From the NCBI GenBank assembly GCA_046757025.1, contig JBHHXN010000001.1, forward strand, positions 59,185 through 123,184: DNA of 64,000 bases. Direction: 5' to 3'. The position numbers were made by a program. The DNA is from a bacterium (lineage in GTDB: Bacteria; Zhuqueibacterota; Zhuqueibacteria; Oceanimicrobiales; Oceanimicrobiaceae). Shown one piece after another: positions 39,001 to 45,000 of the stretch. Within the stretch, counting starts at the first letter, position 1. Every line of letters begins with the position of its first letter.

Positions 39001-42000
39001 GTACGATGATGCTTTCATCATCATCACTTCTGATCACGGCGAGCTCAACGGCGAGCATCGTTCGTTCGGGCACAACACGGATTTATACAACGAGCTGATC
39101 TGGATTCCGTTGATCGTAAAATATCCTGGCAATTCGAATCAGGGATTTAGCGAGCAGACGGTACAGAATATCGATATTATGCCGGAATTGCTGCACAGTC
39201 TGGGCATCGAAATTCCCGAACAGGTGCAGGGCCAGCCGTTTGCGGAAGTGACGCACGATATCATCGCGGAACTGTTTGAACAGAAAAAGGCGCAGGCGTT
39301 ACTTTATCCCGAACGTTACTTTCGTGACTTGCGCGCCATTTTCAAAAACGTCGATGGCGATTCGCTAAAGTACATCTGGTCCTCCAACGGCAAGGATGAG
39401 CTTTACGACATGTCCTCGGATGTGAATGAGTCAATCAATCTGGTAGAACAAAAACCCGAAGTGGTTACGCATTTGGATAAATATTTAAGCGATTGGTTGA
39501 ATAGTTTTGAGCCGGTAAAAGCTGGTAAAGGTGAAATGAAATATACCAAAGAGATTGAAGAGCGGCTGCGCTCGCTGGGTTATTTGAAATGAATGTGAAA
39601 TTCTGCTGTTGGCTTTTGGCCGTTAGCATTTAGCAAAGATCAAGTTGCCAACAGCTAACAGCTAAAAGCCAACAGCCACGGCTCAATAGTTACAAATAAA
39701 CATTGAATAATTAAGAAAGAAATCCGACAAGATAAGCTATGAACTTGAAATCAATAAGCATTAAAATTCTATTTGCGATATTCTGGGGTTTGATCTTTTT
39801 CTTCACCCTGCGCTACATCGGTTTGCAGTGGGAATACGAAGGGCTGTTAACCCGAGGATTGATCGTGGGGGTTTCGTTTGTCAGCAGCAAGCATATTTGG
39901 TATTCCGTGGCCACGGTTTTGGCCAGTGGATTTGTCGCCTCGTCGTTAGTGCTTTTTATGGCCACGCTGTTTCGCCGAAATCGCACTGTCTGGTATCAGC
40001 GCGGGTTGCTGTTTTCCGGTGCCGCTGTTTTGATCATCGCGGTAGCTTTTGTCTGGAATCGTCACACAATCAGTTTGAGCAAGCTGCCGGTGGTCTATCG
40101 CTATTATGACAGCACTGGCCGGCTCATCGAAGCCGAAAAATATACCAAGAATCTCAAAAACGTCAACGTAATTCTGATTTCCATCGATACGTTGAATCCC
40201 GAGCATCTTGGCGCTTACGGTTATGCCAGGGACACCTCGCCCACCATCGACAGCCTGGCCGAAGCCGGCGTGTTTTTTGAGAATGCCTACAGCCATTCAC
40301 CCAAAACTTCCCCTTCGCACATGAGTCTGTTTACATCACTTTATCCCTCTGTGCACAAAATACGCAACTGGAATAAATACCAGGGTGGGTATGCCCTGGA
40401 TCATCGTGTTGTCACCCTGCCCGAAATAATGAAGAACGTGGGCTACCACACGGCGGCTTTTACCGGCGGTGGCAACGTTCAAAGTTCCATCGGATTTGGC
40501 CACGGCTTCGATGTTTATCACGACAATGATCAGGCCTGGGAAAACGCCTTTAGTTGGTTGGATGAAAACCACTCCTCGAAATTTTTTCTGTTCTTGCACA
40601 CCTTCAAGGTGCACTCGCCGTATCTGCCCCCTCCGCCTTACAACACCCTGTTTGATGCCGATTATCGGGGAGACATGCTGGATAGCGAAGAAGCGTTGAA
40701 AGCCTATTTTCACAACAAGTCGCACAACGGCACAGATTTTCCCGGCAGCCACCAGTTGTTTTGGGAGCTGGTTGATAAAAATGATCCGCGGGACATCGAA
40801 CACGTGGTGGCGCTGTACGATGGCGGCATTCGTTTTATGAATGACAAAATGATGGCAACCCTGATCAAAAAGCTGCGCCAATATCATTTGTTAGAGAATA
40901 CCTTGCTCATTTTTACTTCCGACCACGGTGAAGAATTTCTGCAGCACGGCGATTTTCTCCACAAAGAGCTGTACGATGAACACATTCAGGTGCCGTTGAT
41001 CATCAATTTCCCCAAGGCTGATCATTACCAGCAAAAAGTCGTGAAAAATCAGGTATCGCTGATCGATATTGTTCCCACCATTCTGGAGTATCTGTCATTG
41101 CCAGTACCGGTGATGATGCAGGGCAGCAATTTACTACAGATGATCGAGGGCAAAGAAATCGCTCTGCCTGTGTTTAGTGAGCGTATCGTGATATCGGATG
41201 TGCCGGACAAGAAAAAATCCATCCGAACCCTCGAGTGGAAATACATCTGGTGGCCCACGAAAAAAGTTGAAGAGCTGTATGATCTTGTCAACGATCCTGG
41301 CGAGCAAATCAACGTAGCGCAAAAGTACCCGGAAATCGTCGGCGGTTTGTACCGCCAGTTGCTCGACTGGATCAACGAAAATGAAAAAGTCGGTCAATCC
41401 TTTGGCACCTACACCCACAAATTTGATAAAGCCACCATCGAAAAACTCAAATCGCTTGGCTACATACGATAATCTTCCTCTGCGACTGAATGGATTCACT
41501 GGATTTTAAGAAGCTCATTTATGGATTAAAGCTGGGGTTGATTTCAGGGGCGGCATTGGGCCTCGTCCGGGCAGCCTTTTTTCTTGTCAATGAGAACTAT
41601 CAATTTGAAGAAATCAAATTTACAGCGGTCAACCTTTTTTGCAGCAGTGTCAATCAACTCACCCTTTTCGCTCTGCTTTTTTGTTTTGCTTTTGCGGTGT
41701 TGTGGCTGTTTTTTCGCAACCTGGAAAGTCTGGCTCTCTCTACCATCTTCACGGCCTTGATTTTTCTGCCTGCGGCTTATCTCCTGAATAAAAAATATTT
41801 ACCTGGAATCTTCGAAGTTAAAAGCTTGATCGGCAACGCGCTGCTTATTTTACTGGCGTTGATTACGACCTGGACCATGTTCCGACGCTGGCTAAAGGAT
41901 TGGCACTTTGTGAAGCGCGTTTGTCATAAATTTGTTTTGCTGGCAGCGCTGGCTTTGATCGGCGGCGTGAATCTCGCTTACCGGCTGCAGCCTGCTGCGG

Positions 42001-45000
42001 TGCGATTAGACACACAGTCTGCTGATCCAAGGCAAATACTCACGCTTTTTGACTCACAGATGCTTGGGGAATCAGTCTCTTTTGAAGAGCATGGAGCCGG
42101 AGTGAACTCGTCGGTTGAACAAATTTTAAGAAAATATTTAGAAACCAAAGTCATCCAGCGCTTTGAAGCAGTGGTCAGAAAAATTGGCGGGTACGATTCA
42201 CAGACCGTTATCGCGCATGCGGATTCCATTCTCAAGCGCCGGTTCACCTTTGTAAATATCTCTCGCACGCTTCCTAAAAAAATCGACTGGCGAACAAATC
42301 CAACAAAAGACAAAGTGTGGCTGTTTAATCTCAATCGCCAGGAGTGGCTGTGGGATTTGCCGGCCGCGTTTCATTTGACAAGAGATCAAAAGTACGTTCG
42401 GGCGTTTGAAGAGATTATGAGCGGTTGGTTTGAACAAAATCCCATGCCCGACTGGAAAAACGAATCGGATGCGGCCTGGCGCCTGATGGAAACCAGTTTG
42501 CGCATGACCTCGAGTTGGCTCGATGCGTTTACCATATTTTATTTCTACCACCAGCTCAGCGACGAGCTCACATGGCGCATGCTGGCGTCCTTTCACGCGC
42601 ATGCGCAATTTTTAATGCACTTTCGTTCTCCCGGCAGAAACCACTTATTGCAGGAAACCTTTGGACTCATGGCCGTAGCCGGGGTGTTTCCGGAATTCAA
42701 AATGGCGCCAAAATGGTTGAAAATTGCCAACCTGCGCCTGGATACCGTGCTGAATAATGAAATCTATCCGGACGGCGGCTACAACGAAGTTTCGACATTT
42801 TATCATCGCTTCGTGGTACGGATTTTACAGCAAATGGCGGATTTTGCCAAGGAAAATCGTGTGCAGCTTTCCGATTATTTTTATGAAAAACTAGAGCAAA
42901 TGTACGAATTTCTCCTGTACGTGGCCAGACCCGACGGCATGATGCCGCAAATGAACGACGGGTTCACCTCCAAAGATTTGCGCATTCTCTTCGAGCATCC
43001 AGCGGAGTATTTTGATCGCGCCGATTTTGAGTATTTCGCTTCCAATGGCGTCCACGGACAGGAGCCCGAACAACGCTCTGCGGCGTTTCCCTATTCTGGA
43101 ATTTACGTCATGCGCAGCGATTGGAAGGACATGGCCAGGTGGATGATCGTCGATGCCGGTTTGTTCGGTTCGGCCCATGGTCACGAAGACAAACTCTCTT
43201 TCGAATTGTTCGCTTTTGGCAAACCTTTCATCGTCGAGAGCGGCACTTACACCTATATTTACAACCACTGGCACAAATATTTCGAAAGTTCTTTTGCGCA
43301 TAATACCATCGTAGTTGATAATAAAAGTCAGATGCGGCAGCCAAATCCGGATCGCTGGGTCGCGACACCCCCAACCAAACTACCCAATGCCTGGTACTCT
43401 AATCCAGTGTTTGACTATCTGGAATCAAGCTATCGGCAAGGATATGGAAATAACAAGGAAGCCATCCTGCAGGGGGTCGAACACACGAGAAGAATTTTGT
43501 TCGTGAAACCCGATTACTGGCTCTTATGGGACGTAATTACCGGAGAAGGTCAACATAAGCTTGATCAACTTTTTCATTTTGCACCGGATGTGCAATTACA
43601 AATTGCAAATGTACAAAATGTTCAAGTCCGTCATGAAAGCGGACCGGTTCTGCTCATGAAAACACTGCGGCCGGCCGGGGTTCTGGCTAAGCAATTTTAC
43701 GGTGCAGACGCGCCGCTTCAGGGATGGATATCCCCGAAGTACGGAGTCAAAGAGAAAGCGCCGGTTTTGGATTTTAGAATAACAGAAAATTTGCCGGTAG
43801 CATTTGTCACTGTTTTGTATCCCATTCAAAAAGATGACGCTGTGCAGCAAGTAAAGGTCGAATGGCTGCCCACGCTTGTGAAAGACAAGCATTTGCAAGA
43901 TGCTGAAGCCATTGCGTTAAAAGTCACCAGCGCCGACGGCACAGATTACATTTTGATGGCGCCCGGAGTTACAGGAATAAAACGATTTGGTGAACACAAA
44001 ACGCCATCGCAATTGTATGTGAATCGCACCAGCGCGGATGGCTCTCAAAAACAAGAACAGATTGAATTGATGGGGAAATGAAACAAGAATATTGTTTCAA
44101 AATGTGACAATAAAATCGGATGATCCGTTTTAAGACATTGAATTTTTTTGCCGATAGTACTTTTGTGGTAAAAAATAAGAGTAAATGTCTATAAATAAAG
44201 CATGATAAATTCTTAAAAAATACTGGTATAAAATTTGCTTCACCTAAGCGACTGATTTCAGGGTTTTACATTCATTGGATAATCTGGAGAGTTGAAAATT
44301 TATGATTTCTCAGAATCGAAAAAGGGCGGTAGGAAAAGCGATTTCATATCGCGGTTTGGGATCGTTGTTGACGGTGGTCGTCATTTATATTTTTACAGGT
44401 AAACTAACCCTGTCGATTGGCGCCGGAATTGTCGAAGGTATTTCGAAAATGTTGTTTTTTTATTTGCACGAACGTCTTTGGGAAAAAATCTCCTGGGGCA
44501 AAGAAAAGCACCCCCTTTCCGGAATTCCTGTGACGCGAGAGCTCGAACCGGAAGATAAAATCTTGCTCGAAGAACGGCTCAAGGAACTGGGCTATCTATA
44601 GCCAATTTTATTCAGACAAGTTACTGGTTTTGATGCATACGCGGAACCGTTATTTTAATCTACTTTTTGGGAGCAAAGGATGAAACGCACATTCTGGTTG
44701 ATATTTGGATTGTTCTTCGCCTCTTTTGTTTTTATCGACACTCAACCGGCATTGGCGTATATCGGTCCGGGCGCTGGCTTTGCATTTCTTACTTCATTTT
44801 TAATGCTGTTCGCCAGTTTTTTCATGGCCTTTTTTACGCTATTAACCTGGCCCATCCGGGTGTTCATACGCTTTTTCAAAAGGCGCAAAGCTCTGGCAAA
44901 GGCCAAAACCGATAGAGTGGTGATTTTGGGTCTCGATGGTCTTGAGCCCACCATCACGGAACGCTTGTTGAAAGAGGGGAAGTTGCCAAATTTGAAAAAG

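Follow-up and report, generated by a model that had tools for sequence, protein, structure and literature searches.

What would a heparinase-like enzyme do in a locus that makes polysaccharide? The question is raised by a stretch of 64,000 nucleotides (nt), hereafter the window (contig JBHHXN010000001.1 of assembly GCA_046757025.1, a bacterium of the Zhuqueibacterota, positions 59,185 to 123,184), in which an open reading frame (ORF) of 863 amino acids (aa) with a heparinase II/III-like catalytic region lies among glycan-synthesis genes. What is new here is a core resembling polysaccharide lyase family 12 (PL12) in a rare fusion to five transmembrane (TM) helices, within a conserved XrtA/PEP-CTERM-type exopolysaccharide (EPS) locus of the poorly studied KSB1/Calditrichota. 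Most likely, the enzyme tailors the cell's own acidic polymer, by inverting sugars or trimming chains, and does not act on foreign heparin.

A PL12-type fold behind a membrane module

The protein is 100% identical to one that NCBI labels 'alginate lyase family protein' in a metagenome-assembled genome (MAG). Its parts, with the residues that correspond to those of heparinase III (HepIII), are the following:

41490..44081, + strand: whole heparinase-like ORF, 863 aa, 5-TM module plus PL12-like catalytic region
41490..41987, + strand: N-terminal 5-TM module, aa 1-166, predicted N-in/C-out; hydropathy and AlphaFold2 (AF2) helices agree
41787..41837, + strand: TM3-TM4 loop motif N100-K101-x3-P105...S112-x3-N116, invariant in the orthologue alignment and common to the sulfatase-like neighbours
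42126..43013, + strand: Hepar_II_III_N (alpha/alpha toroid), aa 213-508, Pfam E 8e-47, helices in the model
42639..42644, + strand: N384-H385, equivalent to HepIII Asn240-His241, carboxylate neutraliser; NH pair aligned with a one-residue local shift
42801..42806, + strand: Y438-H439, equivalent to HepIII Tyr294-His295, Bronsted base/acid; Y438 aligned directly, invariant in 29 orthologues
43068..43754, + strand: Hepar_II_III_C (beta-sandwich), aa 527-755, Pfam E 2e-35
43176..43190, + strand: H563-G-H565-E-D567 loop, H563 equivalent to HepIII His424; aligned, invariant in 29 orthologues
43482..43490, + strand: H665-T-R667, equivalent to the HepIII His510 region in the 5jmd alignment; H and R invariant

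Both Pfam matches score well over their curated cut-offs, and the AF2 model built from 29 orthologues (predicted local distance difference test, pLDDT, 85.4; predicted template modelling score, pTM, 0.84) has the PL12-type fold: an alpha/alpha toroid and an antiparallel beta-sandwich. The first-pass annotation had read a heparinase II/III domain behind four or five TM helices from three motifs, and on these points it was right: HGHEDKLSFE lies at aa 563-572, GTYTY at 585-589 and HNT at 604-606, and the helices number five, both by hydropathy (five hydrophobic segments within aa 10-166) and in the AF2 model (long helices 4-34, 39-74, 78-102, 110-135 and 147-166). Its pointer to kinship with the glucuronyl C5-epimerases did not hold. 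Identity with D-glucuronyl C5-epimerase (Glce) was rejected, and Glce is not a relative, as neither Pfam nor structure comparison gave a C5-epim_C domain or a Glce-like fold.

The active-site comparison with heparinase III that had been proposed at first pass recovered all equivalents of the Asn/Tyr/His set. The N384-H385 pair is also invariant in the 29 orthologues, and the Asn is kept in 126 of 130 distant relatives. Together with E583 and H604, H565 may bind a metal; PL17, PL21 and dermatan sulfate epimerase 1 (DS-epi1) are the models for this assignment. Judged by its residues, the protein keeps the full Asn/Tyr/His proton-abstraction set plus an HxH..D/E..H site. His510 of HepIII is reportedly important, in work by Pojasek from 2000. 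Residue roles for Tyr294, His424 and Asn240 are described in the 4MMH heparinase III (PMC12088678).

The protein falls outside the HepC equivalogs: NCBIfam gives it 169.8 bits where NF045573 requires 700, and 121 bits where NF045572 requires 600. In place of HepC's soluble secreted form and glycosaminoglycan-utilisation setting, it has a 5-TM anchor and an EPS synthesis locus.

The 5-TM module is a concrete new domain that was previously unannotated: it gave zero Pfam matches even at E<=5, EptA_B_N included. A profile of the N-terminal 200 residues of the heparinase-like protein matched the N terminus of a neighbouring 5-TM sulfatase-fold protein, one of three sulfatase-fold neighbours upstream:

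35332..37200, + strand: 5-TM sulfatase-fold protein, T-W-P-S-L nucleophile motif, with a module (35332-35916) homologous to the heparinase-like one
37451..39592, + strand: 7-TM sulfatase-fold protein, T-I-P-S-H nucleophile motif; first part of the membrane domain homologous to the module
39739..41472, + strand: 3-TM sulfatase-fold protein, T-S-P-S-H nucleophile motif, directly upstream of the heparinase-like ORF
41490-41987, 35332-35916 and 37451-37978: copies of the membrane module on different periplasmic catalytic domains in one locus

In hhalign the heparinase-like module aligned with that of the 5-TM neighbour over 162 columns and all five helices (probability 97.2%, E 3.7e-11, score 74); no control exceeded 26, whether the alignment was reversed, locally shuffled (20 versions) or replaced by one of ten other TM proteins from the window. 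For the 7-TM neighbour the score was 43 (its controls at most 17), the membrane domain of the 3-TM neighbour gave no significant match (probability 8%), and the N terminus of PDE580 scored a marginal 24.6, inside control noise. The three module families (HEP, Sulf5TM and Sulf7TM) have in common the TM3-TM4 loop signature Y-x-x-N-[K/E]-x3-P...G-N, in which N100 is invariant and P105 at least 90% conserved. A search of 5.8 billion proteins with the TM-module alignment returned no match at E<=0.001, its candidate list being probably saturated by hydrophobic words.

Mean net loop charges over the 29 orthologues are +3.7 for TM4-5 and -1.6 for TM1-2, so the positive-inside rule predicts an N-in/C-out topology with the catalytic domain on the periplasmic side. 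We infer that this domain faces the periplasm, where Wzy builds the polymer.

A synthesis locus with tethered enzymes

The window's 39 large ORFs, every one of them on the + strand, together make up a polysaccharide-synthesis locus, with nine glycosyltransferases (families GT2 and GT4), two Wzx, one Wzy, three PMT_2 proteins and a methyltransferase. Among its genes are:

20485..24541, + strand: Wzy polymerase, GT4, Wzx flippase
60421..62382, + strand: FemAB-family protein (TIGR03019) and polysaccharide deacetylase (TIGR03006), XrtA/PEP-CTERM EPS markers
11490-15747, 16229-18055 and 31357-33090, + strand: CarA/CarB pair and two NodU/CmcH-type carbamoyltransferases

The Wzy and Wzx genes imply periplasmic polymer assembly, and a dedicated CarA/CarB pair with carbamoyltransferases in an EPS locus implies O-carbamoylated sugars in the polymer. 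Both XrtA markers exceed their cut-offs (TIGR03019, 326.6 bits versus 260.35; TIGR03006, 286.3 versus 276.2); a GT4 gene at 57505 matches TIGR03088 under its cut-off, and no exosortase gene was seen in the window.

MAGs of candidate division KSB1 and Calditrichaceae, with a few labelled Cytophagia or 'Deferribacteres', supplied full-length orthologues of the heparinase-like protein at 40-60% identity. When all ORFs of 23 related loci were compared with the window proteins by local BLAST, the synteny around the heparinase-like gene was found to be kept in at least 15 genomes or loci. The conserved block runs from the glycoside hydrolase family 39 (GH39) gene through a Golvesin/GHL15-like gene, three to four TM-anchored sulfatase-fold proteins, the heparinase-like gene, PDE726 and PDE681 to a 280-aa membrane protein, a methyltransferase, ATP sulfurylase, adenosine 5'-phosphosulfate (APS) kinase, GT4, GT2, FemAB, deacetylase and PMT_2. 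Gene content, XrtA markers and synteny agree with the biosynthetic setting proposed at first pass. The heparinase-like gene itself begins 17 nt past the upstream sulfatase-like gene, and a promoter and terminator scan near it gave sites not above shuffled controls.

Between the heparinase-like gene and PDE726 lies a gene for a 99-aa DUF2061 membrane protein (44302-44601). It is also found on L001 and L002, which carry the same sequence as the window and so offer no independent evidence; L003 has at this position a 130-aa ORF without a Pfam match. Elsewhere in the window, an FrhB-like Fe-S protein (F420 hydrogenase beta family; 24825-26231) is followed by a 634-aa protein without a family match (26308-28212), a pair also conserved in L018.

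This setting bears directly on the reading that the NCBI label suggests, namely a catabolic heparinase or alginate lyase that scavenges foreign glycosaminoglycans or alginate and sits in the locus by chance. The intact catalytic residues would suit such an enzyme. We consider it highly improbable: the HepC equivalog scores are far under their cut-offs; no SusC/D, transporter or sugar-acid catabolism genes occur in the locus, nor formylglycine (FGly) sulfatases nearby; in MAGs of KSB1, Calditrichaceae and Cytophagia the gene, at 40-56% identity, has the same position within the synthesis block; and only 17 nt separate it from the upstream tailoring gene. Because of this synteny and spacing, any catabolic role is unlikely. 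The first-pass annotation had held that a conserved lyase triad at a periplasmic site would speak for pure catabolism. That combination is what we see, the location being predicted, but it does not imply catabolism, because the gene is syntenic in a synthesis locus in at least 15 genomes and its membrane module is common to neighbouring tailoring enzymes.

Two further anchored proteins of the block act, or may act, on glycans:

29438..31261, + strand: GH39 glycoside hydrolase, 607 aa, N-terminal anchor helix; Pfam GH39 E 5e-57, 194 bits versus a cut-off of 26
30182-30184 and 30566-30568, + strand: codons of the GH39 catalytic Glu residues E249 and E377
33496..35298, + strand: anchored Golvesin_C protein, 600 aa

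The GH39 assignment and its NEP and TETG motifs, both named at first pass, stand: NEP (aa 248-250, acid/base E249) and TETG (aa 376-379, nucleophile E377) align with the catalytic Glu residues of XynB beta-xylosidase, and E249, E377 and the anchor are all conserved in orthologues from related loci. The step from there to iduronidase, and so to iduronic acid, is weak. Among PDB sequences, beta-xylosidases match far better (E 3e-41 over more than 430 aa) than iduronidase, whose match (E 2.5e-8) covers aa 216-298 only, about 80 residues; membership of the alpha-L-iduronidase subgroup was rejected, as the similarity to iduronidase is not full-length. PslG was not among the PDB sequence matches at E<=0.01. 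By analogy, the window GH39 can nevertheless be seen as a PslG-like companion hydrolase that could supply a trimming role; PslG, whose gene belongs to the psl EPS operon, is a retaining GH39 glycosidase that is exported to the periplasm (PMC11912335). The Golvesin_C protein, whose L003 orthologue also matches the glycoside-hydrolase-like GHL15, may be a third member of the periplasmic set, one that cleaves or binds glycans.

For sulfation, the relevant genes are those of 3'-phosphoadenosine-5'-phosphosulfate (PAPS) synthesis and members of the alkaline phosphatase (AP) superfamily:

50872..54336, + strand: ATP sulfurylase (fused to an AP-superfamily domain) and APS kinase, PAPS synthesis
50872-53508, 53713-54336, 44680-48832 and 54336-57447: PAPS genes and AP-superfamily 'Phosphodiest' region

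All three sulfatase-fold (PF00884) neighbours lack the formylglycine signature C/S-x-P-x-R and have Thr at the nucleophile site. From this motif they are better read as transferases or unusual hydrolases than as signs of sulfate removal. They resemble LtaS/EptA-style transferases on an arylsulfatase-like scaffold. The window also encodes five 'Phosphodiest' proteins, one of them fused to ATP sulfurylase, which may carry out sulfo- or phospho-transfer of an unconventional kind. No gene of the syntenic block is better conserved than PDE726 and PDE681 (67-81% identity), and for PDE726 the PDB holds no relative by sequence. As to the 'possible sulfation' noted at first pass, the 64-kb window has the genes for PAPS synthesis, but a Pfam search of it found no canonical sulfotransferase domain.

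Possible inversion or cleavage of the polymer

An exhaustive search of 1.84 billion cluster representatives returned 14,943 relatives at E<=0.001, and among these roughly 15,000 a polytopic N terminus occurs in only about nine 50%-identity clusters. Cluster-member names of the distant relatives were metagenomic hypotheticals and uninformative. The nearest relatives without TM helices (30-37% identity) mostly start with a hydrophilic stretch and have no signal peptide, and four of the five such signal-peptide-less proteins examined lie inside glycan-synthesis clusters: P0053 (L028) directly after a Wzx gene, P0050 (L032) and P0041 in clusters of the ABC-transporter type (with a GT4 gene immediately before the relative in L032 and one gene further away in L031), and P0052 (L035), which like P0050 has Sulfotransfer_1/3 genes immediately downstream. 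The fifth, P0044, has an ambiguous context, and P0040 and P0046, with signal peptides, have non-biosynthetic ones. The L032 and L035 clusters look like bacterial sulfated-glycan loci; with the PAPS genes of the window, these sulfotransferases make a sulfated acidic polymer plausible. Coordinates for this arrangement, seen in metagenomic relatives, are L032 10165-11052 and L035 3863-4678 and 7659-8573; both clusters are rich in glycosyltransferases, and ABC-transporter genes occur only in L032.

The family reaches further. A plasmid of Candidatus Manganitrophus carries a 29%-identical copy in a glycosyltransferase-rich cluster, and cytoplasmic homologues sit beside wecB/wecC, the genes of UDP-N-acetylmannosaminuronic acid (UDP-ManNAcA) synthesis, in the chromosomal galF-gnd O-antigen cluster of E. 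coli AR_0077 (L037 1511-13690) and in an O-antigen-type cluster on a Citrobacter braakii plasmid (L030 1919-12660). These enterobacterial proteins (494-547 aa, 24-25% identity) lack a TM domain and a signal peptide and have the same catalytic constellation; their clusters are a genetically tractable system for family function. The structurally heparinase-like GnlB/WeeF of Acinetobacter has been postulated to act in the synthesis of N-acetyl-L-galactosaminuronic acid (L-GalNAcA) (PMC9676051; bioRxiv 10.64898/2026.07.20.739706). Taken together, the predicted locations appear context-dependent, cytoplasmic in the examined O-antigen and ABC-transporter clusters and periplasm-tethered here next to Wzy, and the locus suggests that the heparinase II/III family has a wide biosynthetic branch still to be characterised.

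Within this branch, the window enzyme probably abstracts H-5 from a uronate of the nascent polymer. The common membrane module would hold it, with the other tailoring enzymes, beside the site of Wzy polymerisation; the Asn would neutralise the carboxylate of a uronic acid in nascent or undecaprenyl-linked polymer, and Tyr/His would then take H-5. Re-protonation of the enolate from the opposite face would convert D-uronate into L-uronate at the polymer level, as in dermatan-sulfate epimerase, while the anchored GH39 would supply PslG-like trimming.

The first-pass annotation had offered a polymer-level epimerase or a chain-trimming lyase; both stay live, and the context favours a biosynthetic role, but sequence cannot choose between them. 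With a probability a little under even, we favour C5-epimerisation as the outcome over AlgL-like cleavage. This is because the closest relatives are cytoplasmic and in synthesis clusters, and in the producer's cytoplasm a polymer lyase, being destructive, makes little sense and an epimerase does; because relatives recur beside sulfotransferases and ManNAcA-synthesis genes; because the locus already has an anchored GH39 for PslG-type trimming; and because the docking module is common to other tailoring enzymes.

The main competitor, though well short of an even chance, is a housekeeping lyase of the AlgL/PslG type, which would break the cell's own uronate EPS by beta-elimination to clear mis-exported polymer, set chain length or release chains, its tether keeping it at the assembly site. 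The top sequence and structure matches of the protein are all lyases, the Tyr that protonates the leaving group is conserved, and the predicted orientation is periplasmic. AlgL is a well-established case of a periplasmic lyase encoded in an EPS operon, and AlgE7 reportedly combines lyase and epimerase activities in one active site. Yet the anchored GH39 and the GHL15-like protein already provide for cleavage in the locus, the closest relatives are cytoplasmic in synthesis clusters near glycosyltransferases or sulfotransferases, where a lyase would be destructive, and a single-helix anchor would suffice to tether a clearing enzyme, whereas a conserved 5-TM module with invariant polar residues has been kept. 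Degradative enzymes in EPS operons do have a precedent in PslG (PMC11912335).

Several further points weigh, like the AlgL precedent, against the epimerase. All biochemically characterised close relatives are lyases, and literature on heparinase II/III genes in EPS and O-antigen clusters consists of annotation-level mentions, with no biochemistry. Epimerases and lyases of this fold rely on identical residues, so residue conservation cannot tell them apart, and the loop that bears H563 has low pLDDT in the AF2 model. The topology is a prediction, and in it the window copy faces the polymer, unlike its cytoplasmic relatives. The case for a uronate substrate comes solely from the heparinase-like enzyme: a crude test for UDP-sugar 6-dehydrogenases (the regular expression GGxC[FLIVMY]xKD in six frames over the window and L001-L026) gave none in the window or the 10 kb flanks of related loci, no uronic-acid synthesis gene was found in the 64-kb window, and the short-chain dehydrogenase/reductase at 3040-4068 is a generic 4-epimerase/dehydratase, undiagnostic for uronates. 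The 'glycosaminoglycan-like uronic-acid polymer' of the first pass thus goes back to this enzyme alone, with neither a uronate-synthesis gene nor a classical sulfotransferase in the window.

That no uronate-synthesis gene was seen leaves room for the same chemistry serving another purpose or substrate: a 4,5-unsaturated non-reducing cap that terminates a lipid-linked chain, action on a non-uronate acidic sugar, or chiefly a scaffold in a tailoring complex. The module common to the neighbours suggests complex formation, and some cytoplasmic relatives are encoded in clusters of the ABC-transporter type, where chains are ended by terminal modifications. We regard this as unlikely, as it is without precedent and, for the scaffold, the invariant catalytic residues argue against a purely structural role.

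If the epimerase is taken further, the window protein may, with the cytoplasmic relatives encoded in clusters for O-antigens, capsules and sulfated glycans, form a so far uncharacterised bacterial family of uronyl C5-epimerases on the heparinase/DS-epimerase fold, supplying the missing enzyme for L-hexuronic acids (N-acetyl-L-gulosaminuronic acid, L-GulNAcA; L-GalNAcA; L-iduronic acid, L-IdoA). In KSB1/Calditrichota the new 5-TM docking module, which Thr-nucleophile sulfatase-fold enzymes also carry, would bring the epimerase to the periplasm, and together these enzymes would make up a membrane-tethered line that tailors a sulfated and carbamoylated EPS resembling a glycosaminoglycan. We hold this wider proposal to be possible, somewhat short of an even chance. 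It matters because many O-antigens, capsules and biofilm polymers contain L-hexuronic acids for which no synthesising enzyme is known, while annotation pipelines routinely label heparinase II/III genes in bacterial glycan-synthesis clusters 'alginate lyase' or 'heparinase'. The association with sulfation genes recurs across relatives; if they are epimerases, they would be a bacterial counterpart to eukaryotic glycosaminoglycan tailoring, in which epimerisation precedes sulfation, with a prokaryotic counterpart of dermatan-sulfate epimerase, and could serve as new tools in the engineering of heparin-like or dermatan-like polymers. Should they be lyases, the 5-TM fusion would be a new coupling of chain trimming to Wzy-dependent assembly.

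Comparison with known systems

The PL12 heparinase III/HepC enzymes (Pedobacter heparinus, 4MMH and 4MMI; Bacteroides thetaiotaomicron, 5JMD, 5JMF and 4FNV) have only 20-23% identity to the window protein, and where HepIII has HAQ the window protein has HxH. HepC is soluble, secreted and encoded in a catabolic locus, whereas the window protein is polytopic, membrane-anchored and encoded in a synthesis locus. Human DS-epi1 (6HZN) appears to have a similar fold at 13% identity, with no detectable relationship at the sequence level; it is a eukaryotic Golgi enzyme with a DUF4962 N-terminal domain, where the window protein has Hepar_II_III_N.

In function, the PL5 lyase AlgL and the beta-helix C5-epimerase AlgG offer an analogy for both outcomes, being periplasmic, EPS-operon-encoded enzymes that abstract the C5 proton on a nascent uronate polymer. 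Their folds are unrelated to that of the window protein, they are soluble and lack a 5-TM fusion, and alginate is made by a synthase-dependent route whereas the window locus is of the Wzx/Wzy type. PslG of the Pseudomonas aeruginosa psl operon is the best analogue of the GH39 ORF at 29438-31261, although in sequence the latter is closest to XynB-type beta-xylosidases.

The architecture recalls LtaS, EptA and OpgB, in which a multi-helix membrane domain likewise presents a periplasmic catalytic domain; theirs has the sulfatase fold, as do the Thr-nucleophile neighbours that resemble enzymes of this type, whereas that of the heparinase-like protein is PL12-like. Closest in kind are the heparinase II/III proteins of O-antigen and capsule clusters in E. 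coli, Citrobacter and Acinetobacter (GnlB/WeeF), which belong to the same family and, like the window gene, are encoded inside glycan-synthesis clusters.

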